Assembly (NCBI GenBank): GCA_032718475.1
Contig: JAUCBJ010008074.1
Span: 1-64,000, forward strand
From: Nemertoderma westbladi
Lineage: Eukaryota > Animalia > Xenacoelomorpha
Length of the DNA: 64,000 nt
Direction: 5' to 3'
Of this stretch, positions 3,001 to 52,705 are shown one piece after another (within the stretch, counting starts at the first letter, position 1; each line of letters begins with the position of its first letter). Position numbers and translations under genes: made by a program. The notes beneath the pieces are model-generated. The model had not been told where the DNA came from, did not search any database, and saw only the letters and a list, made by a program, of their open reading frames with translations.

Positions 3001-5331
3001 GAACCCCTTTATCAACGGGAATCAATACAACCTATGTACTGTAGGTTTAAATGACCCCCTTTATCAACGGGATTCAATATAACCTATGTACTGTAGGTTT
3101 AAATGAACCCCTTTATCAACGGGAATCAATACAACCTATGTACTGTAGGTTTAAATGACCCCCTTTATCAACGGGATTCTATACAACTTATGTATTGTAG
3201 GTTTAAATGAACCCCTTTATCAACGAGATTCAATACAACCTATGTACTGTAGGTTTAAATGAACCCCTATATCAACGGGATTCAATACAACCGATGTACT
3301 GTAGGTTTAAATGAACCCCTTTATCAACGGGATTCAAGACAACCTATGTACTGTAGGTTTAAATGAATCCCTTTATCACGGGATTCAATACAACCTATGT
3401 ACTGTAGGTTTAAATGAACCCCTTTATCAACGGGATTCAATATAACCTATGTACTGTAGGTTTAAATGAATCCCTTTATCAACGGGATTCAATATAACCT
3501 ATGTAATGTAGGTTTAAATGAATCCCTTTATCAACGGGATTCAATATAACCTATGTACTGTAGGTTTAGATGAAACCCTTTATCAACGGGATTCAATATA
3601 ACCTATGTACTGTAGGTTTAAATGAATCCCTTTATCAACGGGATTCAATATAACCTATGTACTGTAGGTTTAAATGAACCCCTTTATCAACGGGATTCAA
3701 TATAACCTATGTACTGTAGGTTTAAATGAACCCCTTTATCAACGGGATTCAATAAAACCTATGTACTGTAGGTTTAAATGAACCCCTTTATCAACGGGAT
3801 TAAATATAACCTATGTACTGTAGGTTTAAATGAATCCCTTGATCAACGGGATTCAATACAACCTATGTACTGTAGGTTTAAAATAACCCCTTTATCAACG
3901 GGATTCAATACAACCTATGTACTGTAGGTTTAAAATAACCCCTTTATCAACGGGATTCAATATAACATATGTACTGTAGGTTTAAATGAATCCCTTTATC
4001 AACGGGATTCAATATAACCTATGTACTGTAGGTTTAAATGAACCCCTTTATCAACGGGATTCAATACAACCTATGTAATGTAGGTTTAAATGAACCCCTT
4101 TATCAACGGGATTCAATATAACCTATGTACTGTAGGTTTAAATGAACCCCTTTATCAACGGGATTCAATACAACCTCTATGTACTGTAGGTTTAAATGAA
4201 CCCCTTTATCAACGGGATTCAATATAACCTATGTACTGTAGGTTTAGATGAACCCCTTTATCAACGGGATTCAATACAACCTATGTACTGTAGGTTTAAA
4301 AGAACCCCTTTATCAACGGGTTTCAATACAACCTATGTACTGTAGGTTTAAAAGAACCCCTTTATCAACGGGATTCAATACAACCTATGTACTGTAGGTT
4401 TAAATGAATCCCTTTATCAACGGGATTCAATATAACCTATGTACTGTAGGTTTAAAAGAACCCCTTTATCAACGGGATTCAATATAACATATGTACTGTA
4501 GGTTTAAAAGAACCCCTTTATCAACGGGATTCAATACAACCTATGTACGGTAGGTTTAAATGAATCCCTTTATCAACGGGATTCAATATAACCTATGTAC
4601 TGTAGGTTTAAAAGAACCCCTTTATCAACGGGATTCAATATAACATATGTACTGTAGGTTTAAATGAACCCCTTTATCAACGGGTTTCAATACAACCTAT
4701 GTAATGTTGGTTTAAATGAACCCCTTTATCAACGGGATTCAATACAACCTATGTACTGTAGGTTTAGATGAACCCCTTTATCAACGGGATTCAATATAAC
4801 CTATGTACTGTAGGTTTAAATGAATCCCTTGATCAACGGGATTCAATACATCCTATGTACTGTAGGTTTAAATGAACCCCTTTATCAACGGGATTCAATA
4901 CAACCTATGTACTGTAGGTTTAAATGAACCCCTTTATCAACGGGATTCAATATAACCTATGTACTGTAGGTTTAAATGAATCCCTTTATCAACGGGATTC
5001 AATATAACCTATGTAATGTAGGTTTAAATAAATCCCTTTATCAACGGGATTCAATACAACCTCTATGTACTGTAGGTTTAAATGAACCCCTTTATCAACG
5101 GGATTCAATACAACCTATGTACTGTAGGTTTAAATGAATCCCTTTATCAACGGGATTCAATACAACCTAACTGTAGGTTTAAATGAATCCCTTTATCAAC
5201 GGGATTCAATACAACCTCTATGTACTGTAGGTTTAAATGAACCCCTTTATCAACGGGATTCAATACAACATATGTACTGTAGGTTTAAATGAATCCCTTT
5301 ATCAACGAGATTCAATATATCCTATGTACTG
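1..5331. repeat. 52-bp tandem satellite (consensus CTGTAGGTTTAAATGAACCCCTTTATCAACGGGATTCAATACAACCTATGTA); begins before the window
   Basis: About 100 near-identical units (TGTACTGTAG at 21, 73, ...). Interrupted by a SINE at 1971-2204 and by an LTR element at 5332. Confidence 0.98.
1971..2204 (+). mobile_element. tRNA-derived SINE inserted in the satellite
   Basis: tRNA-like head with A box (TAGCTCAGTTGG) and B-box-like GGTTCAGCCCC. Central ACTCAGCCTTTCATCC...GTCGATAAAATGAGTACCAG resembles Deu/Nin-type SINE cores. T-rich tail. 12-bp TSD TACTGTAGGTTT at 1959-1970 and 2205-2216. Confidence 0.85.
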
Positions 5332-5538: not shown

Positions 5539-5858
5539 CTTCTTTCTCACGTCTCAAGCTTACTATATTTACCATTCCGTCATTACCAGTCTACCGAATT
5601 GGCTACCTACTTAACTGCTTAACGATCTGGAAAACTTCGCTGCAGTCACCTAATTTTAACTAGGCCTTTAGGCTTATTCAGTTATTGCTGTGTTGCAATT
5701 GCATCTGCTGTCTGTCAATACTGTTGGTTGGTTGGCTCGCGATCTACTACCACCACCCAGCCACCAGTGCTGCAGTGTAAAGCTATACCAGTATACCTAT
5801 ACCTAACAAGGATAGGGTAGCACCTTACCGGTACTGATTGCGTGTACCGGTATACAAA

Positions 5859-8800
5859 ATGGCTGCACAGCATCCATTAAGAACTCCCAAACTTTTACCC
5901 TTAACCAAAACTGAAACCATCAGCTCCTTCGAGACCTGGAGACAAAACTTGGTATATACTCTTTCACTAGATACAGAGTTTGCCCCATTTACTGCAACTG
6001 GTGTACTTTGGGAGAAGAAACTGCGTCACAATCCTACGCGGGGGTTGCTGGATGACGAGGACACTATCCCAGTTGCACGCCGTCGCACAGCTGACCAAAA
6101 GGTTGCTGCTTTGGAATTAATGCTGGGGCAGGTGGCTAATTATGCTCCCATTATTTCAAGAAATACTATAGTCCGGAATTCTGTCTCCTTGCCTGCCATT
6201 TGGCAAGCCCTACGTTTGCATTTTGGGTTCCAGTCTTCGGGTTCTCATTTCCTCGATTTAGCTGAAATTAAATTGGAGCATGAGGAACGCCCAGAGGACT
6301 TATTTCAAAGGCTGATGGCTTTTACTGAGGATAATTTACTGAAGCATGGGGGCAATATTTCTCACCATGGTGAGGACCCCCTTGAAGATGAGGAACTTAC
6401 TCCCACCCTAGAAAATCTCATTGTACTAACATGGCTTCGTCTTATTAATACAAATCTTCCCAAGCTTGTGAAACAGAGGTACGGTACGGAACTGCGTTCC
6501 CGTACCCTCTCAAGCATCAAACCAGAAATTTCACAAGCTCTTCCTTCTCTTTTAGACGAACTTCACTCATCTGCTGAAGTTCGGACATTCCGAATGCAGA
6601 CAGGTTCTATAAGTCAGTTCCTACCTTCCTCCTCCCGTTTTAATAACACTAGCACTAGGCCCAAGGCTGCAGGATCTGGAAATTACACCGTCAAATCAGC
6701 CTCCTGTCCACTGTGTAAACAGGCTGGCCGCAAATCATATAACCATTTCCTGAGTTCCTGCGTATACTTACCTGAGCAAGATCGCCGATTTATGGTCCGT
6801 ACCCGTACAGTCGAAGTGGCTGATGGTAATGTTTATGACGAAGTTGAGGACACTACCACAGCTCTAGAAAATCTGTCAGCAATATATGGAGATGAGTCTG
6901 CATCTATCAGCAGAGTTTCTGTCATCCGGTCGCCCTTCATGAATACTTATTATGGGTCTTCATGCTTGAGGGTAACACTAGATAGTGGAGCTGAGTCTAA
7001 TCTAATTTTAGATACCGTTGCCCAGAAACTTTGCCTCCCTATCACTCCAAATAAGCACCAGATTCCAGCTCAGGCAGATGGTGTATCTAAACTCGGTGTT
7101 ATTGGTGAAACACAGTTTGTTTCAATGAGGGAAAATCTCTCCTTTTCATTCCATGGTCTAGTGGTACAAAACCTAGGAACTGAAATTTTAGCTGGTATGC
7201 CATTTTTAGCTAGCAATGATATTTCTATTCGTCCAGCCACTTCACTTATCACTTTCAGTGATGGCTCTACTTTTGACTATTCAGATAACTCATGCTATCG
7301 TCATCAGCCATTGCCTATTGCCGATGGTCGTATTTGTGGGACTACGATTCTTCGCGCACCCCCTCAATCTATGGTTGTATGGCCAGGTGATGACTTAGTA
7401 CTGAGTTTGCCTGATTCTTTGTGTGACTCAAACCAATCCAATGATGCTATATTAGTTGCTCCACACTGTGATGGCACTGTCAACCAGCCCAGGGCATGGT
7501 TCACCCCCGCGGTTTTGGCTTGCCCTAATCGTAACATCTCAATCACTAATCAGTCTCCAGACCCCGTTTTTATAAAACGCAACTCACATATTTGTTCAGC
7601 AATTAGAACTGTCCCTATTTGCCAGGCTGACCTTGCCACGGAACCTATCCAAGTGGTCCACATAGCAGCCAGCTCTGTGAAATCTCACTCAGATAAGGTT
7701 CACCTGGACCCCGATTGCATACTGTCTCCCCAGGATCATGCCCTATTTCGTGACATTCTGGTAAAGCATGATATAGTATTTGACCCGTCATATCCTGGTT
7801 ATAATGGCGCCGCAGGTGAATTTAAAGCTGTGGTTAATATGGGTCCAGTACTACCCCCTCAGCGTAAAGGTAGACTTCCCCAATACGCTAAACATCGGTT
7901 GTTGGAGCTCCAGGAACGATGTGATGAGTTAGAAAAGCTGGGTGTCTTCTCTACTCCCGAAAATGCTAAAGTATCCGTAGAGTATCTTAATCCCTCATTT
8001 CTGGTAAAAAAGCCCAGTGGAGGACATCGTTTAGTAACGGCCTTCGCAGAGGTTGGTCGGTATGCTAAACCCCAGCCATCTCTTCTACCCAATGTAAATT
8101 CGACCTTACAAGCCATTGCCAGCTTTAAATATATAATCAAAACTGATTTGATGAGTGCTTACTATCAGATACCTCTCTCAGAGGAATCTATGAAATACTG
8201 TGGTATTGTTACTCCATTCCGCGGGGTTAGGGTTTATACTCGATGTGCCATGGGGATGCCGGGATCAGAATCAGCCTTGGAAGAATTGATGTGTAGGGTT
8301 TTGGGGGATCTTCTTGTCAAGGGTATGGTGGTGAAAATTGCAGACGATTTATATTGTGGTGGAAACACTATCCCAGAGTTAGTAGCCAACTTTGATTCAC
8401 TTCTAGCTGCTCTTGCTGTTTGCAACCTTCGACTCTCTGCTGCAAAAACTGTGATTTGTCCACATAGTACTACAATTCTTGGTTGGAAATGGACACTAGG
8501 ATCGCTTTCTGCATCTCCTCATATTGTATCAACGTTAGCTGCTTGTGTGCCACCCACATCTATACGTGGCTTACGATCCTATATCGGATCCTATAAGGCA
8601 TTATCCCGAGTGTTGCCCCACTGTTCATCACTTATTTCTCCCCTTGATGCCCTTTTAACCGATAAGTCCACTGATCTTGTCCAATGGACTGATTCTACAT
8701 CAACTGCATTTCGCCGTAGCCAAGCAGCTCTGAAAAACTGTAAATCTATAACATTGCCTACTCCACAGGATCATCTATGGATTATTACAGATGCTGCTTC

Positions 8801-10868
8801 TTCAACAGATGGTCTAGGAGCCATTCTTTATGTTAAACGTGATAGCAAATTTTTAATCTCAGGGTACTTCACTGCTAAACTTCAGAAACACCAAGCTTTA
8901 TGGCTTCCATGTGAGATGGAAGCATTAGCGATTGCTGCTGCAGTTAAACATTTTTCTCCATATATCATTCAATCCCCAATGCCCACACAGGTCCTTACAG
9001 ACAGCAAACCATGTGTACAGGCCTTCCACAAAATGTGCCGTGGTACATTCTCGAATAGTCCTCGAGTATCCACTTTTCTGTCTATTGCCCATCAGTATCA
9101 GGTGACACTAACCCATCTGCCTGGATCTGCAAATTTACCTGCCGATTTCGCCAGCCGAAATGCTCCACCTATATGTGCTACCAACAATTGCCAAGTTTGC
9201 ACATTTGTTAATGAGTTAGCTGAGGCACCAGTAATTCGATCCCTTCCTTTAGTCAGTGAAGATAATGAATGTGCACCTCGTGAGTTGCCTATTGTGCATG
9301 CTGTGTCAACTAATCCTGCTATAACCAATGACACGAAACCCCTTTATACCAGTCGCCACGCTTGGCTAGAAACACAGCGGGAATGTGCCGACTTACGTCG
9401 TGTTAAAGCTCATTTAGTTCAGGGGACACGCCCGTCCAAGAAAGACACTGATATTCGTGATGTCAAGCGATATCTGGGTGTTGCTTCATTGACAAGCAAT
9501 GGCTTACTTGTTGTTCGACAAGAGGAACCATTCACTGCAGCTCGTGAATTGATTATCATCCCTCGAACTATTGTTCTTGGTCTCTTAACATCAATACACC
9601 TGGAGCTTAACCATCCATCAGCAAGCCAATTAAAGAAAAACATTACGCGAAATTTTTATTGCCTTGATCTCGATAATGCTGTTGCTGCTGTAACATCAGG
9701 CTGCCATCAATGTAGTGCCCTATCACGATGTCCACAACAAATTATTGCACAATCATCTGGAGAACCTCCTGAAGCAATTGCTATATCTTTTGCTGCAGAT
9801 GTGCTACGCCGTTATCAGCAATATATTTTGGTGGTTAGAGAGACAGTATCTTCATACACATTGGCTTGTATCTTACCTAATGAGCGTCATGAGTCTATAC
9901 GTGATAGCTTAATTAAGCTATGTGTTGGCTTGCGGCCTATAAGGGGGCCTCCTGCAATTATTCGTACTGATCCCGCCCCTGGTTTTGTTGCGCTTAAGGA
10001 GGACCAAATCTTGGCATCACATAATCTGCACATTGAGTTAGGTCAACGTAAGAACATAAACAAAAATCCTGTGGCGGAACGAGCCATTCAGGAACTTGAA
10101 GTAGAGTTTCTCAAATCCAGCCATGGAGGGGGCCCAGTTTCTGAAACAGCCCTATCTATTGCTCTAGCCCATCTTAATTCTCGAATACGATTTAATGGAT
10201 TATCATCTCGGGAAATATTGTTTCAACGAGACCAGTTTAGTGGCTTACAAATCCCTGTCAATGACAAGTCTATTATACTACAACAACATAGTGCAAGGTC
10301 ATACAATCATTCATTGAGCTCAAAATCCAAAGCTCCCCATCCTTCTGCTCTGTTATACCCTGAGGAAAGTATCAAGATTGGTGACTTAGTATATTTATAT
10401 TCTGATAATTCCAAGCATCAGAACCGTTGTCGATATCTTGTTACTGCTGTGGATGGAGACTGGTGTAATGTTCGGAAATTCATTGGCCACCAACTACGTG
10501 CCTTTTCATACCGCATCCGACTGTCAAACTGTTATAGGGTTCCCGCAAATACTACCATTTATAACAGTTATCCTTCTATCCAGAGCGACTCATCTGATGA
10601 TGATATTGGTTTGCCAACTCATGATATTGGTTTGCCAACTCAAGTTGGCCCCATTGATGTCGATGTTATGGATGTACCAGATGACCCTATTCCAGTTGCT
10701 GTACCTCGTACTCGTGACTCTGGGATCCCTCCACCATTAGAAGACCATGATGAACCTCATCCTTATGCAACCATACCTGCATCCCATAGTGAACAGGGTT
10801 CTGCGAGACTCCGTCGATCAATGCGTACCCGCAAGCCTCCCAATTATTACGGCTTTGAGGAACAATAA
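5859..10868 (+). CDS. Gag-Pol polyprotein (Gag, aspartic protease, RT, RNase H, integrase)
   Basis: Uninterrupted ORF with first ATG at 5859. Motifs: LDSGA (protease), KIADD (RT), TDAAS/CEMEALAI/TDSKP/ADFASR (RNase H), HLELNH..CHQC plus D,D,E (integrase). Gypsy domain order. Confidence 0.93.
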   Translation: MAAQHPLRTPKLLPLTKTETISSFETWRQNLVYTLSLDTEFAPFTATGVLWEKKLRHNPTRGLLDDEDTIPVARRRTADQKVAALELMLGQVANYAPIISRNTIVRNSVSLPAIWQALRLHFGFQSSGSHFLDLAEIKLEHEERPEDLFQRLMAFTEDNLLKHGGNISHHGEDPLEDEELTPTLENLIVLTWLRLINTNLPKLVKQRYGTELRSRTLSSIKPEISQALPSLLDELHSSAEVRTFRMQTGSISQFLPSSSRFNNTSTRPKAAGSGNYTVKSASCPLCKQAGRKSYNHFLSSCVYLPEQDRRFMVRTRTVEVADGNVYDEVEDTTTALENLSAIYGDESASISRVSVIRSPFMNTYYGSSCLRVTLDSGAESNLILDTVAQKLCLPITPNKHQIPAQADGVSKLGVIGETQFVSMRENLSFSFHGLVVQNLGTEILAGMPFLASNDISIRPATSLITFSDGSTFDYSDNSCYRHQPLPIADGRICGTTILRAPPQSMVVWPGDDLVLSLPDSLCDSNQSNDAILVAPHCDGTVNQPRAWFTPAVLACPNRNISITNQSPDPVFIKRNSHICSAIRTVPICQADLATEPIQVVHIAASSVKSHSDKVHLDPDCILSPQDHALFRDILVKHDIVFDPSYPGYNGAAGEFKAVVNMGPVLPPQRKGRLPQYAKHRLLELQERCDELEKLGVFSTPENAKVSVEYLNPSFLVKKPSGGHRLVTAFAEVGRYAKPQPSLLPNVNSTLQAIASFKYIIKTDLMSAYYQIPLSEESMKYCGIVTPFRGVRVYTRCAMGMPGSESALEELMCRVLGDLLVKGMVVKIADDLYCGGNTIPELVANFDSLLAALAVCNLRLSAAKTVICPHSTTILGWKWTLGSLSASPHIVSTLAACVPPTSIRGLRSYIGSYKALSRVLPHCSSLISPLDALLTDKSTDLVQWTDSTSTAFRRSQAALKNCKSITLPTPQDHLWIITDAASSTDGLGAILYVKRDSKFLISGYFTAKLQKHQALWLPCEMEALAIAAAVKHFSPYIIQSPMPTQVLTDSKPCVQAFHKMCRGTFSNSPRVSTFLSIAHQYQVTLTHLPGSANLPADFASRNAPPICATNNCQVCTFVNELAEAPVIRSLPLVSEDNECAPRELPIVHAVSTNPAITNDTKPLYTSRHAWLETQRECADLRRVKAHLVQGTRPSKKDTDIRDVKRYLGVASLTSNGLLVVRQEEPFTAARELIIIPRTIVLGLLTSIHLELNHPSASQLKKNITRNFYCLDLDNAVAAVTSGCHQCSALSRCPQQIIAQSSGEPPEAIAISFAADVLRRYQQYILVVRETVSSYTLACILPNERHESIRDSLIKLCVGLRPIRGPPAIIRTDPAPGFVALKEDQILASHNLHIELGQRKNINKNPVAERAIQELEVEFLKSSHGGGPVSETALSIALAHLNSRIRFNGLSSREILFQRDQFSGLQIPVNDKSIILQQHSARSYNHSLSSKSKAPHPSALLYPEESIKIGDLVYLYSDNSKHQNRCRYLVTAVDGDWCNVRKFIGHQLRAFSYRIRLSNCYRVPANTTIYNSYPSIQSDSSDDDIGLPTHDIGLPTQVGPIDVDVMDVPDDPIPVAVPRTRDSGIPPPLEDHDEPHPYATIPASHSEQGSARLRRSMRTRKPPNYYGFEEQ

Positions 10869-15092: not shown

Positions 15093-15382
15093 AGGTTCCA
15101 CCTTGGTGTAGTGGTTGCATTGAATTCACATCTCCTGTAGGTCGTGGGTTCGATCCTCACATGGGCCAGGGCAGTTTTCGTTTCGGCACGAATGCTTTGA
15201 AGTGACCAGCCAGGGCGCATCTCTCTACCTTACATCCTTAAGTGGTAGCTAAATGAGTACTGGAGTTTCCTCTGGGGAGTAAAAAGTTCTGGGGGGACCG
15301 CACTGGAAATAAGTCGACAGACATTGTGCGTAATCCGAGGCCTATAGCAACCGAAGAAAACTTTTCTATTTTACTATACTTT
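15093..15382 (+). mobile_element. tRNA-derived SINE
   Basis: A box TGGTGTAGTGG, B box GGTTCGATCC, core-like GTAGCTAAATGAGTACTGG, and T-rich end. The same head recurs at 47488-47560 and 45023-45095. Confidence 0.7.
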
Positions 15383-27210: not shown

Positions 27211-27718
27211 AAGAGAGAGTAAGAGGTAAAAGGGGTAAAAAAAAATAGGATATAGATATTAGATAGCAGTAAGTAGAGTTAGTAGCGAGAGGGGGGCATA
27301 TGAGTGCAGCTGGATAAATCGTGTGGCCACACGACGCATACGGCTGTACTGCATAGGCCCACTGAGTAGGCCAGAATATGGATCAGAGAGAGAATAGAAT
27401 AAATCCATAGGCAGTAGTAAGTAGTAGGACAGTAGAATCAAAGAAAAATAAATAAATAAATAGAATAGGGCTAAAATCGGAAAATAGTGGTAACACAAGG
27501 AAAGTCGTTCTAGAACATAATAAAAGTAACGGACGGAAATTGTAAATTAGGCTGATTTACTAGCTCCGAAATTAATTAGATTAAATTAAGCTTGAAAGGC
27601 GCAGTTAAGTAGAAAAGCAGGCCATTATCGAACTGTAAGAAACATCTTAGTACATCACTCATCTGTATTGCGCCTTGGTAAGGCACCACCCTACAGGTGA
27701 GCGAGTGTAGTGTTCGGA

Positions 27719-30253
27719 ATGGCGAGTAAGCTGATCAGGAAGAGAAAAGCGGAGTCGGGAGGAAAAGAAATATTGGTGGATTTCACCGAAAGACACCCGG
27801 AGGAGAAGACGAGAGGATACTACGAGAGGTTGGAAAGGGGTCACGCGGCACGAGCGCTGCAGGATCACTTCCGGGAGGCGCACGAACAGCGGTTGGTCGG
27901 GACCTACGGGACGCCGTCGCTGGATAACGCGATCTTCCAACACTTCCACTACGTGGTGAAAGGAGACGAGGCGAAGTTCGGGATTCCGAAGTATCCGAGG
28001 GAATCGCCGAGGAAGGACTGGAAAAGATTCATAGAGTCCGTCAACAGAGGAGGATATATGATCCTAGATGACGAGGGAACCGTGGAAGACGAAGCGGGTT
28101 CGAGACGAGGAACGGCAGGGTCGGCCAGGACCATACTCTTGCATTTGGCAGCGCCAAATGGGGACATCTTCTTATTCGACCTAGGGACGTATGGGAAGAA
28201 GGACGGGCCGAAATTAGACCGACTGCCGAAAGCGGTACAGGTCTTAGTAAGAGAGAAGTCGACGACGAAAGTGGGATCGGCGATTCGCGAGGACGCGGAG
28301 AGGATCATCGGTCCGGACGCCACCAACCTCCTGGATATGCAGAAAGTCTTTATGGCTATGACGGCACCGGATGGATTGGGGGTGGTCGAGAACTCAGGCC
28401 AATGCGGGGCGGTGGCGATGGGCCAATTATTGGGGCTCGTATGCCACAAACCAATGGATTGGGGGAAGTTTAGGGAAGAATACGGAGCGGAACTAGCGAA
28501 CTCGCTGAAGTGGGGAGCGAGACCGGGAAAGCAGGAGGTATATCAGTTTCGCAGAGGAGCGATAAAGGTATATCAGAAGCGATATATCCTGCAGGAGGAC
28601 TGGATGATGATAAGTTTACTTAACTTATTCATGACCGTAGTTATCGAAAGGGAACCAGGGGCATTTCTGTTATCGGGATCACCCCTAAGCTACAGGAGAG
28701 CCTTTAAGACGGCCTTTGACGGTCTGGTAGACCACCCGGGGCTGAAGGGCGAGTCGGTGTACTACAACAGCCGACATCTGGTAGATGGGGAAACGGATAC
28801 ACCGTATCAGAGATGGGAGCAGCTAGAGATGGATAGACGGGAAGCAAAGCGACTGGAAGAAGTCGCTAGACGGGAGAGGATAGAAGCAGAGGAGAGGGAA
28901 GAGGAGGCCAGGACACAGAGTTATGGCTTCGAGGAACAGGCGGGCCTAGACGAGCTTCATTGGACTTCGTCAGGGAGTTCGGGGGAGTCTCTAGGGCGAG
29001 AATTGGGATGGACGGTGGGATCGCCGAAACAGTCGACGTCGGGGTTGCAAACGATGCCCATACCAGCGGGCGCCGAGGGCGACCAACCGCCAAGGAAGTT
29101 AAGGGAGCTAGAGGGATGGAGAGCTACGGGCGAAAGCCAAGGCGGAAAGGGACATAGTGGATCCGTCGGGATACCGGGATTGGAGACGCTACCGGAAGAA
29201 GAGGACGACGACGACGAATTCGGAGAGATGCCGCCCATCGAGAGAATAGGCCACTCGGACACGGACTGGGTTGGCGGAAGGGTGGTGACGGCCAGTGGGG
29301 CGAGGGCCTTCTGGAACAGATCCGGCAAGCGGACCTGGGTGCACGAGGGGCCGGCGATGGATTTCGCAGGGAGCACCATCAGGTTGGGCGAGCAACCGGG
29401 GACGGCACCACGGATAGTATTCGGGGAGACGATGCCCGAGAGGGGCGGAGAGATCGACGTAAACAGGGAGAGCAACGTGGAGAAGTTTGCCTACCAGCGA
29501 CTCCATAGACCGCGGAGATCGCTTGGGACAAAGGACGAGGTGGGACGCGAGACATTGGTACTCGGCTGCGACTACTGTGGGAGACAGACCCATCAGGAAA
29601 GCAGCTGCCTATACCGGTTCCAACGGGGAACCTTTTGTCTCTATTGTAGAGAACCAAGTCACAGGATGGGGGCGTGTCCACGGTTGCATAACCGATGTCC
29701 AAAGTGCCACTTTCGGGGACACTACGGACGCGAGTGCGACTGGATGAGCGACGAGGAGAAGTTCACAAGGTTCGAGGAGTGGGCCGACGTCGGGGCCATG
29801 ACGCGCCAGCGCATGAAGGCCCAAGAGTTCAAGTGGGGTTTCTTCCTCATAAACCAGGAGACCCACATGGAAATCATAAAGCGAAGGTTACCGTTTACCT
29901 ATCAAGAGGTAGCTACGGCGGCATCGTTCGCCGGAGTTATGAACACGCAACGGTACCTGGACAGGTGGACACCAGAGAACCGGAGGGAGTTTAGGGATTT
30001 CTTGGCGGAACACGTACCAAAGGCAATGAAGATGATCCTATGGGACGCCACACGAGGGAAACAACCAGGCCATTCTGAGGGGCCACCGGCGAAGCGGTAT
30101 CGGGCTTTAATAACACCAGCGCCCAAGGAGCCGACGACCGGGATCAGCAAGGAAGTGGCAGCGAAGGTCCGGAAGCAGAAAGCGGATGATGCCAGAGGAA
30201 CAGTGATAACCAAGAAACGGGCCAGGGAGGAGGACGTGAGGAGGTACAGATGA
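27719..30253 (+). CDS. Extra ORF of BEL element 1: DEDDy (WRN/EXD/Mut-7-like) 3'-5' exonuclease-like domain plus three CCHC zinc knuckles
   Basis: Intact ORF of about 844 aa between pol and the 3' LTR. Motifs: ILDDEG, LHLAAPNGDIFLFDL, LPKAVQVLV...KVGSAIRED, LLDMQ, QKRYILQED, then three Cx2Cx4Hx4C. Confidence 0.75.
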   Translation: MASKLIRKRKAESGGKEILVDFTERHPEEKTRGYYERLERGHAARALQDHFREAHEQRLVGTYGTPSLDNAIFQHFHYVVKGDEAKFGIPKYPRESPRKDWKRFIESVNRGGYMILDDEGTVEDEAGSRRGTAGSARTILLHLAAPNGDIFLFDLGTYGKKDGPKLDRLPKAVQVLVREKSTTKVGSAIREDAERIIGPDATNLLDMQKVFMAMTAPDGLGVVENSGQCGAVAMGQLLGLVCHKPMDWGKFREEYGAELANSLKWGARPGKQEVYQFRRGAIKVYQKRYILQEDWMMISLLNLFMTVVIEREPGAFLLSGSPLSYRRAFKTAFDGLVDHPGLKGESVYYNSRHLVDGETDTPYQRWEQLEMDRREAKRLEEVARRERIEAEEREEEARTQSYGFEEQAGLDELHWTSSGSSGESLGRELGWTVGSPKQSTSGLQTMPIPAGAEGDQPPRKLRELEGWRATGESQGGKGHSGSVGIPGLETLPEEEDDDDEFGEMPPIERIGHSDTDWVGGRVVTASGARAFWNRSGKRTWVHEGPAMDFAGSTIRLGEQPGTAPRIVFGETMPERGGEIDVNRESNVEKFAYQRLHRPRRSLGTKDEVGRETLVLGCDYCGRQTHQESSCLYRFQRGTFCLYCREPSHRMGACPRLHNRCPKCHFRGHYGRECDWMSDEEKFTRFEEWADVGAMTRQRMKAQEFKWGFFLINQETHMEIIKRRLPFTYQEVATAASFAGVMNTQRYLDRWTPENRREFRDFLAEHVPKAMKMILWDATRGKQPGHSEGPPAKRYRALITPAPKEPTTGISKEVAAKVRKQKADDARGTVITKKRAREEDVRRYR

Positions 30254-38892: not shown

Positions 38893-38921
38893 TATTATGT
38901 TTTGCAGTTATTAATATAATA

Positions 38922-39388
38922 GGGGGCGTTCATAAAGTATGTCACGCACTACGGGGGGGGGGGGGGGGGGGGTCAAGCTTGCGTGACATTTTGTGATAGG
39001 GTGGGGGGGGGGGGGGGGGTGTTGACTTTTGTGACGGTCACGGCGATGTTCTATGGTATGCTTTAATGTTAACTTGACATGGCTAACACTTGTAGATGAG
39101 TGGGAAACTTTAAGGAAAAAACAATAAACTCAATAACATTGAATTTAATCCCTAACATTAACCGGACACCCCTGTCTAGTCTGCCTTGTACATGTACAGT
39201 ACAGTAGTTTGAAGCTGCTAAAGTATATATAGGCTTTTAGTAAGAACTACTTCAGTCAAAATGTTTCACTTTCTATTGTGCTTTCTAACTGTTATTCGTC
39301 TAGGGGGGGGGGGGGGGGGGGGTTATAAATTTATGAAAAAAAACTGGAAAACTGGAAAATTTGCGTGACATACTTTATGAACGCCCCC
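38922..39388. mobile_element. MITE (PIF/Harbinger-like) 30 bp after the VPS11 stop codon
   Basis: Perfect 27-bp TIR GGGGGCGTTCATAAAGTATGTCACGCA, flanked by ATA on both sides. Confidence 0.85.
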
Positions 39389-40187
39389 ATATCATAATGC
39401 ATTACTAGTAGTAATGATGAATTTGTTTTACATAATTAATTTAATTGTACAAGGCGAATTATTTATTTATTGTGTCAAATTAAATATTAAATAGACTTAC
39501 TAGACTGCTAAATATTATTAAATTGTCTTCACAAACCATCACGTTTCCTCTTAACAACCGGATGCGAAAAATCAAGATCATACGTACATATTAATCTGTT
39601 CTAGCAAAGCAGTTGTGGCCGCTAATATTACCGACCCGGTCTGTAGGGTGGTTCTTATTTGTCGTAAACGCCCTGGACTGCTGCCTGCAATAACATTACC
39701 TAGTTAACCGTTATGTTAGGGGTTAAGGGCCGTTTACCTCACTGCCCAAACATAACAGGTAACTAATATGATTACACCACGATCTACGTTGTTCACATTT
39801 TTACAATTCCCACGAATATCATTTACTGTCAGTATTATTTAGCCTTTGTGGCATTTACAAACATCAAATGGGCAGATTGGATACTACCGTGACCTATAAC
39901 AGTTACATGGTAATGTATACACTTTTATCGTAAGTCAAGATACTACCCGTTCTAGAACTCAAGAACTGCAGAACCTGCCTGTTTTGTTTCTGTTGCTACT
40001 GTGTGTCGTTACAGGTACCGGTCGAAACAGGGTAAGCCTTTGTTGTTACAATGTTATTTGCTGTAATCGATTTTTTTACATTAAGCTACAAAAAATATTA
40101 AATTAAAACTCAAGAACAATTTCTCACGCCTCAACGCCATTCTTTGCTTTCAAGGATTAATTAAAAAACGTGCAAAATAAATATTGC

Positions 40188-40269
40188 CGCAGTGTGTAGG
40201 ATTCGAACCTACGCGGGAAGATCCCATTGGATTTCTAGTCCAACGCCTTAACCACTCGGCCAACACTGC
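40188..40269 (-). tRNA. tRNA-Ser(AGA)
   Basis: 82-nt cloverleaf: acceptor GCAGTGT/ACACTGC+G, anticodon loop CT-AGA-AA, long variable arm, GTAGG-TTCGAAT-CCTAC T arm, and downstream T runs on the minus strand. Confidence 0.95.
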
Positions 40270-43302: not shown

Positions 43303-44148
43303 ATGTATCTTCTTGTATGTTCTTGTATGTATCAATACAAATTGAACAAAATGTAACCAAATGCAGAACTATAAGAACAAAATTTAGATTCAAGAAAGCG
43401 GAACTCTAAGTACAAAATATAGCCATGGGTGGTACTCTACAGTAAGAACAAAGTCTAGCTACAGGGTTACAGCTACGTTAAAGTAAAGTTCACTTACAGT
43501 ACGTCATGACGAATAATTAAAGACCTGTTTTTTCTACAGTACGTGGCAACATTTTGAGCAACTCTATCAGCAACTTAGTAAGCATTAGTAGTAATGGTTT
43601 ACCCTACTTCTGCGACAGTTTGGTCCCACTTCACACCTTGGGTGTTAAGTAGGTCATTAATTAATTAATCAATTAATTAATTGGTCGATTAAACAATTAA
43701 TTAATTGTTTAATCAATCGATTTGTATCAAATAATGTTGCCAAAGGCAATTTAATTTGATACAAATCAATCAGATAGGGACGCGCGATGAATAAATTGTA
43801 CTACAGTAGGTACAGTAGATAAAATATACAATACAATAGGAACCGTAGTACAGTACAATACAATATACAATACATTTGTATTATTTTTGCCATACAATAG
43901 GTAAAGGTAGAATTAAATAAAAAGACACAATCGAAACCCAAAACATAAATTACCCTCACACAAAAATAAAGTGGCCCCAGTTTGACTAATCCCTTTGAAT
44001 CCATAGCTTCGTTATTACATCAATTCATCCAAGAAATTAGAATAATCATCTACTCTTGCAATAGTTTGTATTCTTTTGCGTTATACTTTATGAAGCAGTC
44101 CACGCGCATATTAACTCAAAGACAAACCCCTACCCAAACACCATGTGA

Positions 44149-44451
44149 TCAATAATCCCACACCTCTTCTCCCCACGCCATTGAACATTCTCCCTTCTTC
44201 TCTTCTTTCTCTTCTTTTTTCTCTTCTTTTTTCTGTTCTTTTAATATATGAAAAATTGAGTTCCTGGACCTATATTCGCAAAACCGCAAATGGTGATCCT
44301 TTTCAGCTTCTCTAAAGCTGTGTGCGGGTTGAAAAGGACACTGAACCATTTTTTGATTCGAAAAGTTCTTACGACATTTTCTTAAATGCGTAACATATTT
44401 TTCTGAATGAATTCTGTGTGTGGCATCATAAGGACATATGAAATATTCCAT
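44149..44451 (-). CDS. GTSF1/Asterix-like double CHHC zinc-finger protein, 100 aa (left-arm copy)
   Basis: CPYDxxHx9HxxxCRKN and CPFxxxHx9HxxxC fingers plus a C-terminal WGEEVWD. Translation is identical to the right-arm copy. Confidence 0.85.
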   Translation of the reverse strand: MEYFICPYDATHRIHSEKYVTHLRKCRKNFSNQKMVQCPFQPAHSFREAEKDHHLRFCEYRSRNSIFHILKEQKKEEKKEEKEEKKGECSMAWGEEVWDY

Positions 44452-45163
44452 AGTAACAAAAGACAAAAACAAAATTTATTGAGATATACTTTTTAAAAAA
44501 CTTTTAAAAACCTCACTTAATATTTTTAGAGATAATGATCTAACTTTACATGGTTTTATTTATATAGAAAGGTCCACCTTAACATTTCAAACAGAACCAT
44601 AGTTTTTGGTATGGCATGCGTGAAGGATTAAGCATCCCATGGAACCCCTTGTTGAGTTATACTCTACAATGAAATATAAAGACGCAATCGAGGCCCAAAA
44701 CATAAATTACCCTCACACAAAAATAAAGTGGCCCCAGTTTGGCCCCGAGTCATCCCTCAATAATCTGCGGTCGTTAGGCTCTTATTAACTGTAGCATGAC
44801 TAACCCAAACATCAATGCGTGAATGGGGCCTGCGTGAATGGGACCTGCCATAGAGTTTAAATTATTCAAACCTATAGCTTCGTTATTACATCAATTCATC
44901 CAAGAAATTAGAATAAACATCTGCTCTTGCAATAGTTTGCATTCTTTCATATTGTACTTTATGAAGCGGTTTACGCATGCATTAGCTCAACAACAAAGCC
45001 CTACCCAAAACACCACATGTCAAGTCCATGTGAGGGTTGAACCCATGACATGCGGGAGATGTGAATTCAAAGCAACCACTACACCAAGGTGGAACAGCAA
45101 CGTTTGAATTTGTTCGTTAACGTTCGAATTTGTAAGACTCTGATTTAAGACCTGAGGCACTCC

Positions 45164-45560
45164 CCACAACCACAGCCACATCCACAACCACAGCCACAGC
45201 CACAGCCACAACCACAGCCACAGCCACAGCCACAGCCACAGCCACAGCCACAGCCACAGCCACAGCCACACCACAGCCACAGCCACAGCCACAGCCACAG
45301 CCACAGCCACAGCCACAACCACAGCCACAGCCACAGCCACAGCCACAGCCACAGCCACAACCACAGCCACAGCCACAACCACAGCCACAGCCACAACCAC
45401 AGCCACAGCCACAGCCACAGCCACAACCACAGCCACAACCACAGCCACAACCACAGCCACAGCCACAGCCACAGCCACAGCCACAGCCACAACCACAACC
45501 ACAGCCACAACCACAGCCACAGCCACAACCACAGCCACAACCACAGCCACAACCACAGCC
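45164..45560. repeat. (CCACAG/CCACAA)n hexamer microsatellite, left arm
   Basis: Directly visible. Mirrored at 46978-47418. Confidence 0.97.
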
Positions 45561-45971
45561 TCACCTTCACCCACTTTATTGTTAAATACGCCTGAGAAAA
45601 ATTCAAGAAACATCTGGTTTACAATAGATTATTCTTTTTTCACAACTCCATTCTAGCCTCCCTCTATAAAAGCCCCCATTCACCGCAACTGGTCATGTAA
45701 ATGTTTACTGTTACTGTTTACTGTCTAAATGTTAAATGTAACTGTTTAACTGTTTTGATGTTCTTTGTTTAACCCCTATATTATTTATCCAAAGTTGAAA
45801 AAGAAAAATGAAATATAGTCGACTATTTTCATATTTTTAATATAGCAACATTGAAATATATATTTATAACATAACACATATACATATACATATAGCAGAG
45901 TAACATTTAAGATATAACACATTGTAACACATAAGTTATAACACATTGTAACATTTCATTCAATTGTCTAA

Positions 45972-46727
45972 TTATCTTCTGCACTGTCTCACATTAACTG
46001 TACGACTGTTACTGTTCATAATCCTAGGATATACAACAGTTGCTGGAGATATAACTTTTCCATTCCCTACTCTGATTTTCTGTCCATTTTCATTGTCATT
46101 CTCCTCTGATGCTTCCTCACTGTCATCGCTACTCTCCTCTGATTCTTCCTCACTGTCATCGCTACTCTCCTCCGATTCATCCCCATCACTCTCATTTCCA
46201 TCATTATCACTCTCCTTATGCGAATGTTTCTGCATTTCATTCAATTGTCTAATTATCTTCTGCAATTTATTTTTATTTCCTAATACATGTCTTAATATCT
46301 CCTCATTATCTGAGTCATTATCCTCACCACTTTCATGTTCCTCGACTTCTTTCTCGCTCTCATTTTCTTCACCACCACTCTCATTTTCTTCTTTCTCTAT
46401 CTCACTCTCCGTTTCATCATTCTCACTTTCCTCTGATTTATTCTCTTCCTCACTCTCATCGTCCTTTTCACTATGTGGCTGTTTCTGTATATTCTTCAAA
46501 ATATTCATGATTTTCTCGAATTTATGTTTCATCATTTGTTTAATCTCTAGAAAATCACTCTCAACTCTCTTTTTGTTTTCTTCTTCACTAAAAATATCAT
46601 CATTATTTTTTAATTTCTTTGGTAATGGTTCCATTACACCTTCCTTTCTATGTATACTCATATGACGGGATATACTGTCTCGTCTCATTTCTTTATTACA
46701 AACCAAACATCTTTCATAGCTAGGCAT
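45972..46727 (-). CDS. Small protein with an N-terminal C2H2 zinc finger and acidic repeats
   Basis: CLVCNKEMRRDSISRHMSIH. Upstream TATAAAAG (46874-46867) and Inr-like TCATTC about 28 nt downstream of it on the minus strand. Confidence 0.65.
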   Translation of the reverse strand: MPSYERCLVCNKEMRRDSISRHMSIHRKEGVMEPLPKKLKNNDDIFSEEENKKRVESDFLEIKQMMKHKFEKIMNILKNIQKQPHSEKDDESEEENKSEESENDETESEIEKEENESGGEENESEKEVEEHESGEDNDSDNEEILRHVLGNKNKLQKIIRQLNEMQKHSHKESDNDGNESDGDESEESSDDSEEESEESSDDSEEASEENDNENGQKIRVGNGKVISPATVVYPRIMNSNSRTVNVRQCRR

Positions 46728-46842
46728 TATATAGCAATGTCAATTGATATTATGAATTTTCGCTGAATGATTTTACAAAATTTTAAATAAATAAAACTTT
46801 TATGAAAATAAATAAAACTTTTAAAAATAAAAATTAGAGAAT

Positions 46843-46874
46843 GAATGAGAATGCGGTGAATGGGGGCTTTTATA
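46843..46874 (-). promoter_or_regulatory. TATA box plus initiator-like motif upstream of the C2H2 ORF
   Basis: TATAAAAG followed at canonical spacing by TCATTC. Confidence 0.55.
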
Positions 46875-46977
46875 GAGGGAGGCTAGAATGGAGTTGTGAA
46901 AAAAGAATAATCTATTGTAAACCAGATGTTTCTTGAATTTTTCTCAGGCGTATTTAACAATAAAGTGGGTGAAGGTG

Positions 46978-47418
46978 AGGCTGTGGTTGTGGCTGTGGTT
47001 GTGGCTGTGGTTGTGGCTGTGGCTGTGGTTGTGGCTGTTGCTGTGGTTGTGGTTGTGGCTGTGGCTGTGGCTGTGGCTGTGGCTGTGGCTGTGGCTGTGG
47101 TTGTGGCTGTGGTTGTGGCTGTGGTTGTGGCTGTGGTGTGGCTGTGGCTGTGGCTGTGGTTGTGGCTGTGGCTGTGGTTGTGGCTGTGGCTGTGGTTGTG
47201 GCTGTGGCTGTGGTTGTGGCTGTGGCTGTGGCTGTGGCTGTGGTTGTGGCTGTGGTTGTGGCTGTGGCTTGTGGCTGTGGCTGTGGCTGTGGCTGTGGTT
47301 GTGGCTGTGGCTGTGGCTGTGGCTGTGGCTGTGGTCTGTGGCTGTGGCTGTGGCTGTGGCTGTGGCTGTGGTTGTGGCTGTGGCTGTGGCTGTGGTTGTG
47401 GATGTGGCTGTGGTTGTG
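46978..47418. repeat. (GTGGCT/GTGGTT)n hexamer microsatellite, right arm
   Basis: Directly visible. Length and pattern differ from the left copy. Confidence 0.97.
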
Positions 47419-48016
47419 GGGAGTGCCTCAGGTCTTAAATCAGAGTCTTACAAATTCGAACGTTAACGAACAAATTCAAACGTTGCTGTTCCACCTTGGT
47501 GTAGTGGTTGCTTTGAATTCACATCTCCCGCATGTCATGGGTTCAACCCTCACATGGACTTGACATGTGGTGTTTTGGGTAGGGCTTTGTTGTTGAGCTA
47601 ATGCATGCGTAAACCGCTTCATAAAGTACAATATGAAAGAATGCAAACTATTGCAAGAGCAGATGTTTATTCTAATTTCTTGGATGAATTGATGTAATAA
47701 CGAAGCTATAGGTTTGAATAATTTAAACTCTATGGCAGGTCCCATTCACGCAGGCCCCATTCACGCATTGATGTTTGGGTTAGTCATGCTACAGTTAATA
47801 AGAGCCTAACGACCGCAGATTATTGAGGGATGACTCGGGGCCAAACTGGGGCCACTTTATTTTTGTGTGAGGGTAATTTATGTTTTGGGCCTCGATTGCG
47901 TCTTTATATTTCATTGTAGAGTATAACTCAACAAGGGGTTCCATGGGATGCTTAATCCTTCACGCATGCCATACCAAAAACTATGGTTCTGTTTGAAATG
48001 TTAAGGTGGACCTTTC

Positions 48017-48050
48017 TATATAAATAAAACCATGTAAAGTTAGATCATTA
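48017..48050 (+). promoter_or_regulatory. TATA plus Inr-like motif upstream of the GTSF1-like ORF (mirrored in the left arm)
   Basis: TATATAAATA at 48017, TCATTA at 48045, ATG at 48132. Confidence 0.5.
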
Positions 48051-48131
48051 TCTCTAAAAATATTAAGTGAGGTTTTTAAAAGTTTTTTAAAAAGTATATC
48101 TCAATAAATTTTGTTTTTGTCTTTTGTTACT

Positions 48132-48434
48132 ATGGAATATTTCATATGTCCTTATGATGCCACACACAGAATTCATTCAGAAAAATATGTTACGCATTTA
48201 AGAAAATGTCGTAAGAACTTTTCGAATCAAAAAATGGTTCAGTGTCCTTTTCAACCCGCACACAGCTTTAGAGAAGCTGAAAAGGATCACCATTTGCGGT
48301 TTTGCGAATATAGGTCCAGGAACTCAATTTTTCATATATTAAAAGAACAGAAAAAAGAAGAGAAAAAAGAAGAGAAAGAAGAGAAGAAGGGAGAATGTTC
48401 AATGGCGTGGGGAGAAGAGGTGTGGGATTATTGA
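48132..48434 (+). CDS. GTSF1/Asterix-like double CHHC zinc-finger protein, 100 aa (right-arm copy)
   Basis: MEYFICPYDATHRIHSEKYVTHLRKCRKN...CPFQPAHSFREAEKDHHLRFCEYRS...WGEEVWDY. Intronless. Confidence 0.85.
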   Translation: MEYFICPYDATHRIHSEKYVTHLRKCRKNFSNQKMVQCPFQPAHSFREAEKDHHLRFCEYRSRNSIFHILKEQKKEEKKEEKEEKKGECSMAWGEEVWDY

Positions 48435-48996
48435 TCACATGGTGTTTGGGTAGGGGTTTGTCTTTGAGTTAATATGCGCGTGGACTGCTTCATAAAGTAT
48501 AACGCAAAAGAATACAAACTATTGCAAGAGTAGATGATTATTCTAATTTCTTGGATGAATTGATGTAATAACGAAGCTATGGATTCAAAGGGATTAGTCA
48601 AACTGGGGCCACTTTATTTTTGTGTGAGGGTAATTTATGTTTTGGGTTTCGATTGTGTCTTTTTATTTAATTCTACCTTTACCTATTGTATGGCAAAAAT
48701 AATACAAATGTATTGTATATTGTATTGTACTGTACTACGGTTCCTATTGTATTGTATATTTTATCTACTGTACCTACTGTAGTACAATTTATTCATCGCG
48801 CGTCCCTATCTGATTGATTTGTATCAAATTAAATTGCCTTTGGCAACATTATTTGATACAAATCGATTGATTAAACAATTAATTAATTGTTTAATCGACC
48901 AATTAATTAATTGATTGATTAATTAATGACCTACTTAACACCCAAGGTGTGAAGTGGGACCAAACTGTCGCAGAAGTAGGGTAAACCATTACTACT

Positions 48997-49439
48997 CTTA
49001 CTGTAATTTCCCACTTACTTACTGTAACTTCCCACTTACTTACTGTAACTTCCCACTTACTTACTGTAACTTCCCCCTTACTTACTGTAACTTCCCACTT
49101 ACTTACTGTAACTTCCCACTTACTTACTGTAACTTTCCACTTACATACTGTGTAACTTCCCCTATTACTTACTGTAACTTCCCCCTTACTTACCGTAACT
49201 TCCCCCTTACTTACTGTAATTTCCCACTTACTTACTGTAACTTCCCACTTACTTACTGTAACTTCCCACTTACTTACTGTAACTTCCCACTTACTTACTG
49301 TAACTTCCCACATACTTACTGTAATTTCCCACTTACTTACTGCAAGTTCCCCCTTACTTACTGTAACTTCCCACTTACTTACTGTAACTTCCCACTTACT
49401 TACTGTAACTTCCCACTTACATACTGTGTAACTTCCCCT
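48997..49439. repeat. 21-bp minisatellite (CTTACTGTAACTTCCCACTTA)
   Basis: About 21 copies between the foldback end and the BEL LTR. Confidence 0.95.
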
Positions 49440-50920: not shown

Positions 50921-52705
50921 CTATTTCTTACTCTGATACGCTTTCCTTCTCTTCGCCCGTCTACTCTCGTCGATCGCCAGTGCAGGTAGGGGAGCGTCAA
51001 CGTCCATCGCGAGCATCGCTGCAGCTTGTCTCCTGGCGGCCCTTCCTTTGGATGGTAGCGGGATCATGTCCGTCCGTCTCTCCAACTCGGTAGTGCGTGC
51101 CTCTAGAAACCACTTTCCATCACCGAATTCTTCTTTGTAGGAGTATAAGCGCCTGAGGATCTCGAAGGGACCGAATAATCCAGCGCTCAATAGTAGATCC
51201 ACATAATGGAATGGTAGTGTCGATGCCGTATGGAGGCGTTCTGGGAACGAGAAGTATCCGCACGCCATCTCTTGCGCGACATTTCGAGCGCTTCTCCACA
51301 CTTTGGTCTTTACGTGGTTATTGGCGTAGGTTTCAAACATAACCATATTTCCCATAGCTGTTACGTCTTTAGTAGGACACTTTATGTTACAACGGGGACT
51401 CGCGGAATGTCCACGGAAACCGCATTTTGTGCAGAGGTTGTAAAGGGTAGGACAAACCGAAACATCGTGGCCCGATATCGCGCAATAGGGACAGTAAAGT
51501 ATCCCAAGGAGCTGGAGGCACAAATCGGTAACCCGATTTCTCCTTCCGCGTGGACACTGTTCCGAACTGCAGTTTCCGCACACCTCCAGTTGCATCTCCC
51601 GGCCGAAGAATATCGGGATCGGTACGCCGGCGTAATACTCCAGCCATCGGTCACTTTTGGGGATACTCGCAGTTGCCGGTAGCCCGCGGAATGCTGGGCT
51701 TTGGTGGAATATGTTCTCGCTACGATAACCTTCCTTATAGCCCGCCGGTCGCATCCCGGGAGCCTGTTTCTGGCGGTGGATCCACTCGGTTTGTTCGGCA
51801 TACCATCGGGTAAGTCGCATAGGGTCTTGTGGAATGGAGGGGGCCATCGCCACAGCCGGTCGGCGAAGGGGTACTGGCGATTTCGTCAGTCTCACTTCCC
51901 GGAATCCACGCATGAATTCTGTGGATCGCAACCAGGCTAACAGGGTTTGGGTGTCGACGAAGTGACTAATGGTGCTGAGGTCTTCTTGTCGGTTTCTTCC
52001 GAAGGGAGCATTGGCGTAGTCATTCCGGATATCCGCTTTTATATCTGACCCAATCGTAATAACATCGAAATCGAATAGGATCTGTTGGATCTCCGGTGGT
52101 AATAACCAGATCGCTCCGGATGTCCGCACCTCCTGTTTGGGTGTCGAGAAGATCCGACATATTAACACTAGACCGTCTAGGGTTCCGAGGACGACGACTA
52201 ATGATCGACCGTATTCCTTTGTCCCATACTTCTCCTGGTAGTCATCGCGGTTCTGGATGACCGATATACGCTCCTCTCGTAGCGACGTTGTACATTCCGC
52301 TAGGTTTCCCCAGTGGGTGAGGTATGTACTCTTGTCGTCGACGAAACTTTGGCATCGCACCAACGTAATCGCTTTCGAAGTGGGCGTCGCGTTTCCCTCG
52401 TTGTCATATATCAAACATCGGGATTTGTAGACGCTTCGACGGAACGTTTCCCAGAACGTCAACTCCGCTCCTCTGGTTGCCTTTGCGTTCCGAGTTCTTT
52501 TCAGGCTCGTACTAGCATCGGACAACCAGAGCTCTCGTAGATTACGGGAATCCGGTTCCTCTCGCCCAGAGAATTTAATGATTCGCACATTCTCTGTTAT
52601 CAGGGCGTTCCATTTCGTATCAAAGTTAGGAGATCTAGGCTGTGGATATTCCAGTAAATCGAGAGTGTTACGTAATTCGCCGAGAATTTGGCGATTTGAG
52701 TCCAT
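50921..52705 (-). CDS. Extra ORF of BEL element 2: degenerate exonuclease-like domain plus zinc knuckles, homologous to 27719-30253
   Basis: LPPEIQQILFDFDVITIGSDIKAD...FVDTQ and CPYCAISGHDVSVCPTLYNLCTKCGFRGH...FETYA...GYF...LPFHY. Confidence 0.7.
   Translation of the reverse strand: MDSNRQILGELRNTLDLLEYPQPRSPNFDTKWNALITENVRIIKFSGREEPDSRNLRELWLSDASTSLKRTRNAKATRGAELTFWETFRRSVYKSRCLIYDNEGNATPTSKAITLVRCQSFVDDKSTYLTHWGNLAECTTSLREERISVIQNRDDYQEKYGTKEYGRSLVVVLGTLDGLVLICRIFSTPKQEVRTSGAIWLLPPEIQQILFDFDVITIGSDIKADIRNDYANAPFGRNRQEDLSTISHFVDTQTLLAWLRSTEFMRGFREVRLTKSPVPLRRPAVAMAPSIPQDPMRLTRWYAEQTEWIHRQKQAPGMRPAGYKEGYRSENIFHQSPAFRGLPATASIPKSDRWLEYYAGVPIPIFFGREMQLEVCGNCSSEQCPRGRRNRVTDLCLQLLGILYCPYCAISGHDVSVCPTLYNLCTKCGFRGHSASPRCNIKCPTKDVTAMGNMVMFETYANNHVKTKVWRSARNVAQEMACGYFSFPERLHTASTLPFHYVDLLLSAGLFGPFEILRRLYSYKEEFGDGKWFLEARTTELERRTDMIPLPSKGRAARRQAAAMLAMDVDAPLPALAIDESRRAKRRKAYQSKK

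Follow-up and report, generated by a model that had tools for sequence, protein, structure and literature searches.

An intact GTSF1-like gene in the inverted arms of a probable Maverick/Polinton derivative in Nemertoderma westbladi

The window analysed here is a stretch of 64,000 nucleotides from the xenacoelomorph Nemertoderma westbladi (GenBank assembly GCA_032718475.1, contig JAUCBJ010008074.1, positions 1 to 64,000 of the forward strand). It contains a 5,410-bp element with two inverted arms. Each arm carries an identical, intronless gene for a 100-amino-acid (aa) protein of the GTSF1 family, here called mini-GTSF1. This is a real and unusual anatomy: an intact cofactor gene from the pathway of PIWI-interacting RNAs (piRNAs) is found within the arms of a repeated element whose ends are of Maverick type. 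The link to Polintons (Mavericks) and the function of mini-GTSF1 are what we infer from this anatomy.

Anatomy of the element and its gene

The features of the element and its right flank are as follows (open reading frame, ORF; short interspersed nuclear element, SINE).

43587-48996: whole element, 5,410 bp, two inverted arms and a spacer
43587-45687, + strand: left terminal inverted repeat, 2,101 bp, begins AGTAGT
46852-48996, - strand: right terminal inverted repeat, 2,145 bp, terminates ACTACT
44149-44451, - strand: mini-GTSF1 ORF, copy 1, 100 aa, intronless, reading outward
48132-48434, + strand: mini-GTSF1 ORF, copy 2, identical to copy 1
48017-48049, + strand: TATA box and TCATT initiator-like site of copy 2 (mirror at 44566, - strand)
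45972-46727, - strand: 251-aa ORF in the spacer, with an N-terminal C2H2-like finger followed by acidic low-complexity blocks
46843-46874, - strand: TATA box (within the arm) and initiator-like site of the 251-aa ORF, same layout as for mini-GTSF1
45164-45560 (left arm) and 46979-47419 (right arm): hexamer microsatellite
47488-47557, + strand: tRNA-like SINE head (mirror at 45026-45095), 90% identical over 70 bp to 15095-15164 within a host intron
48440-48675, + strand: 3' module after the mini-GTSF1 stop, repeated at 47568-47918 (86% over 142 bp; 92% over 77 bp)
45687-45953: spacer segment flanked by out-of-window DNA in contigs of all four read runs, marking the deletion breakpoints of this copy
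48997-49437: 21-bp minisatellite array in the right flank, with no copy in the left flank

The two arms differ by a single substitution (43666/48917) and by 44 bp of indels, all within the hexamer microsatellite. The inverted match extends exactly as far as AGTAGT on one side and ACTACT on the other. Beyond it, the two flanks are unrelated, the left being unique DNA beside a fragment of a long interspersed nuclear element and the right being the minisatellite array. An earlier note, made from the sequence alone, had described 2.1-kb inverted arms with these termini, an intronless 100-aa ORF in each arm and a TATA/initiator-like promoter for each ORF. The arm comparison bears out the first of these, both ORFs were found and encode identical proteins, and a TATA box and a TCATT site lie upstream of both copies as judged from sequence.

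The distance from the TATA box to TCATT is 28-30 nt, with no upstream ATG. The 64 kb contain four loci with this pair, and three of them are upstream of ORFs of the element (the two mini-GTSF1 copies and the spacer ORF). Its shuffle p values are 0.014 and 0.024, for a pattern picked after the sites were seen. At third codon positions, G or C is present in 34 of 100 codons of the mini-GTSF1 ORF, 80 of 251 codons of the spacer ORF (p 0.71) and 234 of 371 codons of an exon of the host gene Vps11 (p 2e-7).

Pfam, PDB sequence, fold and language-model searches agree in placing the ORF in the GTSF1 family, as the earlier note had proposed. The zf-U11-48K domain (PF05253) that it expected of a profile search is matched twice (E 3.3e-10). 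Among PDB sequences, it matches mouse GTSF1 best (6x46, E 2.6e-11), followed by the GTSF1 chain of 9nhb (E 2.9e-8). An AlphaFold2 model built from a 34-row alignment has a predicted local distance difference test score (pLDDT) of 83, and its two top fold matches are 6x46 and 9nhc, the latter a SIWI-piRNA-target-GTSF1-Maelstrom complex. The language-model search returns zf-U11-48K clusters with scores of 0.94-0.95. Both of the CHHC fingers read in the protein by the earlier note are present according to Pfam and the fold, and all eight zinc ligands are intact. Identity as U11-48K or TRM13 is ruled out by the two fingers and the length of 100 aa; U11-48K itself matches at E 0.063 with one finger. 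These proteins have a single CHHC finger inside a larger spliceosomal or methyltransferase protein.

HMMER finds 434 relatives, and the residue and motif counts given here are from the best 150 of these. The tandem-finger pattern is present in 142 of the 150. Among the matches listed, the closest of the 142 is 44% identical to mini-GTSF1 across the finger pair, and none is more similar. In a tree of 143 finger pairs (quick method, 63 columns), the branch leading to the ORF has a length of 1.28 compared to a median of 0.39. Mini-GTSF1 has no supported position in this tree and does not group with short GTSF1 proteins.

Passages of PMC9385479 report that mouse GTSF1 requires R26, R29, K36 and K39 for RNA binding, and W98, W107 and W112 for PIWI binding. 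In the alignment to 6x46, the four basic positions correspond to H15, K18, K25 and K28, so that three of four are Lys or Arg. The His at position 15 is little informative, because Arg or Lys is found there in only 47 of the 142 relatives. The terminal W-x4-W acidic motif of the earlier note is seen as W93-x4-W98. Its spacing fits mouse W107-x4-W112 and its EEVWD context resembles that of W107, with the residue equivalence ambiguous. Of the 142 relatives, 89 have an acidic Trp motif, at a median of 38 residues past the second finger; here the distance is 36. Mini-GTSF1 terminates two residues past this motif and has no C-terminal tail.

Mini-GTSF1 therefore resembles GTSF1/Asterix/Cue110 proteins in its tandem CHHC fingers of the same spacing, in three of the four residues of the basic ridge on finger 1 and in the distance to the Trp motif. 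It differs from those represented by 6x46 and 9nhb/9nhc in being 100 aa long, tail-less and intronless, in having His at the R26 position and in lying within the arms of a repeated element. Six GTSF1-like proteins of 105-126 aa on metagenome contigs of up to 49 kb also terminate at the Trp motif (P0021, P0023, P0028, P0109, P0274 and P0275).

The 251-aa spacer ORF is absent from the earlier account. No homologue was found among 6,738 candidates in a word-indexed protein search covering lengths of 138-440. In the language-model search it matches mostly small C2H2 proteins of large DNA viruses with scores of 0.80-0.84, which are below the reliable range. The promoter and first codons of this ORF (46669-46860) attract far more read contigs than the ORF body. 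Because of this excess, the start module seems to be common to many other sequences of the genome.

In both arms, the mini-GTSF1 cassette is flanked by direct repeats of its own 3' region, and this arrangement suggests that the gene was gained through duplication and replacement of a cassette. A frame at 45020-45613 (- strand) has an ATG near the inner end of the arm, runs through the microsatellite and stops where the second 3' repeat starts, in the same register as the mini-GTSF1 stop. It is shifted in the right arm and is possibly the remnant of a second gene cassette. The SINE head in each arm finishes with an 8-bp word that also opens the mini-GTSF1 3' region, which suggests capture via microhomology. 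ARAGORN and Rfam call nothing real in the element, the SINE head included.

Ancestry and copies of the carrier

The ends of the element carry (AGT)2//(ACT)2, one of the two known Maverick motifs, the other being (AG)3//(CT)3. The former is the commonest end motif of vertebrate Mavericks in the passages seen of PMC8097293. By the hexamer counts of the window, the chance of either motif at a given strand position is ~7e-4. From the same passages, intact vertebrate Mavericks are 12.7-24.6 kb long, with arms of 46-1,447 bp, 6-bp duplications and intronless core genes, and most of them hold accessory regions with diverse ORFs. Nematode Polintons have similar ranges, with arms of 100-1,500 bp, in an excerpt of PMC10748475. 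Target-site duplications of Mavericks and Polintons measure 5-8 bp, mostly 6 bp. The element thus resembles Mavericks in its end motif, its long inverted arms and its intronless ORFs. It is unlike them in its length of 5.4 kb, in its 2.1-kb arms, in having a host-type gene in these arms and in the absence of core genes and a 6-bp duplication from this copy.

The label "Polinton-like" given to the element by the earlier note is supported by the end motif and the long arms, and is not supported by target-site or gene content. Since the element agrees with Mavericks in the former pair and fails in the latter, it is described here as a probable Maverick/Polinton derivative and is not filed as a member. 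Maverick ancestry itself is likely, given the end motif, the long arms and the intronless genes with a shared TATA/initiator layout.

Four read runs of the same organism from three studies (X1 to X4) were compared with the window. X1 and X3 are from one sample, which may be the source of the window. The share of words from the outer arm (47420-48996) present in the four runs is 0.80, 0.58, 0.44 and 0.12. In a further run, X5, it is 0.05; the contig comparison covers X1 to X4. Contigs matching 45565-46975 number 297, 95, 139 and 34 in the four runs, with at most 13 contigs per single variant in a run; summed read depths are not equal to copy numbers. These contig and variant counts are too high for a single copy, and the spacer and inner arm ends therefore exist in many variant copies, as repeated sequence and not as a single locus. 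A repeated, mobile-type element is supported for this region.

In all four runs, contigs part from the window both before position 45687 and after position 45953, continuing into other DNA. This copy is therefore a deletion product of a longer repeated element. One X4 contig crosses the junction between the arm and the spacer ORF (46688-46892) with 16 differences. In X2 and X4, by comparison by eye, the inner arm end at 46917 is joined to sequence matching 47654 onward. This join corresponds to a 736-bp deletion at a 6-bp microhomology and would leave an arm of ~1.4 kb. A locally duplicated host gene is unlikely, because the spacer and inner arm ends belong to a deleted derivative of a larger repeated element.

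Other features of the window

The host gene Vps11 spans 11726-38892 and contains a BEL/Pao element in an intron, and a Gypsy element lies just upstream (5838-10868). The Vps11 exon is 40-50% identical to the 120 matches listed, of which the best are from echinoderms, hemichordates, molluscs and corals; the database searched contains no close relative of the host. Two BEL/Pao elements carry an extra ORF 3' of pol, at 27701-30253 (+ strand) and 50921-52705 (- strand). These ORFs have a Cys/His cluster in common (29% over 157 aa, E 4e-12) and lack a good Pfam match. They show a motif that may resemble that of DEDDy exonucleases; a single-sequence model has a pLDDT of 37 and no usable fold. The window also contains a small element resembling a miniature inverted-repeat transposable element (38915-39396) with 35-bp inverted ends (94%), a tRNA-Ser(AGA) gene (40188-40269, - strand) and a 52/156-bp satellite array (5-5331).

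Proposed function and alternative explanations

An intact frame, element-like codon use and a candidate promoter together suggest that mini-GTSF1 is probably a long-resident, functional gene of the element. What it does is more tentative. We favour, at somewhat less than even confidence, a reading in which the element derives from a Maverick and its captured mini-GTSF1, predicted to be expressed, would compete with host GTSF1 on PIWI and weaken silencing.

In this scheme, polymerase and integrase would come in trans from an autonomous partner, as is established for non-autonomous elements in general. Transcription of mini-GTSF1 would run outward from the gene's own promoter, from two sites in each copy, deleted copies included. 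A position inside the arm would double the dose and would allow deleted copies to retain the gene. By homology, mini-GTSF1 would dock on target-engaged PIWI through its Trp motif and on RNA through finger 1. In the weakest step, the tail-less protein would occupy the PIWI site and poorly support the silencing complex. Silencing of the element would then decrease, to its benefit. In predicted complexes described in an excerpt of PMC13650160, the central part and the C-terminal part of GTSF1 wrap the PIWI domain, and the Drosophila nuclear silencing complex assembles with Gtsf1 and Maelstrom in the passages seen of PMC13269885 and PMC13618286. For these reasons, a tail-less form could hold the site without full function.

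A number of findings weigh against this interpretation. On the side of ancestry, no target-site duplication was found in a scan of 4-9 bp at offsets of 0-7, which gave one 4-bp offset match only. The 6-bp duplication that the earlier note proposed to look for is lacking at this copy, where AGCATT lies beside the left end and CTTACT beside the right; recombination between copies or loss of one flank may account for this. No polymerase, integrase, ATPase, protease or capsid ORF lies within this copy. The 2.1-kb arms exceed the published Maverick ranges, though reads from two other studies indicate the variant that is 736 bp shorter. On the side of copy number, the contig comparison covers the spacer and inner arm ends, and the evidence for multiple copies is for these parts of the element. 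Among the contig pieces listed (there are 539 others), none spans both breakpoints of this copy. On the side of the gene, the contrast in third-position composition is with one host exon, and a Gypsy ORF of the window has the same low value (0.34). Because of the latter value, mini-GTSF1 codon use is by this measure element-like and not element-specific. Five of the 89 relatives with a Trp motif likewise terminate at the motif, some of them perhaps partial, and short length alone is therefore no sign of a decoy. Mini-GTSF1 retains the two halves on which PIWI activation by mouse GTSF1 depends, which fits an activator too, and truncation data for GTSF1 were not found in the passages seen of PMC9808576. 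Among viral sequences, no GTSF1 relative was confirmed among 99, 7 and 17 pattern matches in viral contigs, and none of 363 matches in a predicted viral structure library has E <= 0.001.

The same element could instead carry mini-GTSF1 as a working activator of PIWI slicing, which helps the host or hits competing retroelements and leaves the carrier little affected. The retained RNA-binding positions (three of four) and the PIWI-binding Trp motif are consistent with this. Long terminal repeat (LTR) elements are also the most de-repressed class in Asterix mutants in passages of 10.1101/2020.08.11.246769, and Gypsy and BEL/Pao elements are abundant in the window. A stronger piRNA pathway should, however, hit the transcripts of the carrier too, and the tail that wraps PIWI is absent. 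We rate an activator as rather unlikely.

It is improbable that the gene is a passenger, or that the carrier is another long-armed transposon (foldback or Mutator-type) whose ends are Maverick-like by coincidence. At odds with this are the low chance of the end motif (~7e-4), the intact state of the eight zinc ligands, the Trp motif and the promoter pair, and codon use matching the element. Both versions are in keeping with the lack of a target-site duplication and of a Polinton core gene. The host SINE head shows that host DNA does enter the arm. Shuffles of the arm produce a 100-codon ORF in 3% of cases, and the two ORF copies are identical and hence uninformative on selection.

An RNA-level route, as in Drosophila TART, would rely on piRNAs that derive from the captured sequence and lower host Gtsf1 mRNA. 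Fragments of nxf2, aub and piwi are a precedent in excerpts of PMC13534243, and the inverted arms could yield double-stranded RNA. In the same excerpts, however, targeting failed at ~79-82% identity to the host gene. Codon use here is unlike that of the tested host exon, and this route needs neither an intact ORF nor a promoter. It is considered quite improbable.

The chance that the 5.4-kb foldback layout is a mis-assembly of high-copy repeat pieces is slim. The arms are near-identical, several microsatellite indels are not multiples of six, and X2, X3 and X4 contigs pass both breakpoints into other DNA, all of which would fit an artefact. Yet both arms end at the same motif between unrelated flanks, the X4 contig crosses the junction between arm and spacer ORF, and in X2 and X4 the inner arm end continues into the arm's own repeat. 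An X1 contig terminates exactly at 45687 in a branch-like manner, which is a hint only. An artefact would still leave the gene in the arm.

The least probable explanation is that the ORF is the single GTSF1 gene of the host in a local inverted duplication: the read counts do not cover the gene itself, short GTSF1 proteins occur elsewhere, and the host is fast-evolving (Vps11 is 40-50% identical to the relatives listed), so that divergence alone proves nothing, but the duplication ends at a transposon end motif, the adjoining sequence is highly repeated in the reads and the codon use is unlike that of the host exon.

Searches for relatives and for prior descriptions agree with the earlier note, which knew of no description of this arrangement: no viral or mobile GTSF1 was found in sequence, fold or literature searches. 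None of 76 candidates from a word-indexed protein search is related to the mini-GTSF1 ORF, none of 590 in metagenome contigs was confirmed, and PHROGs give weak composition matches only. The element end has no match in metagenome contigs and three internal 19-bp chance matches in viral contigs. Among the matches listed, the full-text literature has no link between Polintons or Mavericks and CHHC or GTSF1 proteins (subscription papers, Repbase and preprint supplements lie outside this search). Co-mention of Mavericks and GTSF1 is limited to general reviews among the matches listed, and the GTSF1 passages of one of these draw no link. GTSF1 is unmentioned in the gene-capture literature among the matches listed, and GTSF1 and CHHC terms are absent from the supplements of PMC8097293, PMC8502044 and PMC10748475 (one file each).

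Two known systems are similar in part. According to excerpts of PMC13534243, Drosophila telomeric elements have repeatedly taken up pieces of genes of the piRNA pathway (nxf2, aub, piwi) as a counter-defence. Both cases have a mobile element that holds piRNA-pathway gene sequence, read as counter-defence. In Drosophila, the fragments are in non-LTR retroelements and act via piRNAs, whereas here a DNA element contains a whole gene with its putative promoter, and the effect would come from the protein. In the C. elegans eri-6/7 region, as described in passages of 10.1101/2024.01.15.575659, Polinton arms and remnants are likewise tied to a small-RNA pathway gene, and recombination through these arms rearranges loci. 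There, the Polinton inserts into and reshuffles a host gene without carrying it; here, the gene is carried.

The evasion of the piRNA pathway by animal DNA transposons and endogenous DNA viruses is largely open, and the cases in the papers cited here are captured fragments that act through RNA. It is possible, though we hold this with more reserve than the competition proposed above, that a Maverick/Polinton lineage captured GTSF1, trimmed it to its RNA- and PIWI-gripping parts and placed it in its terminal repeats. Mini-GTSF1 would then be a protein suppressor of piRNA silencing and the first case of a mobile element encoding a PIWI cofactor. If true, an intact minimal PIWI cofactor borne by an element would represent either a counter-defence at the protein level or a mutualistic cargo. 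As a natural truncation, the 100-aa protein would also bear on the question of which GTSF1 parts serve activation and which serve binding.

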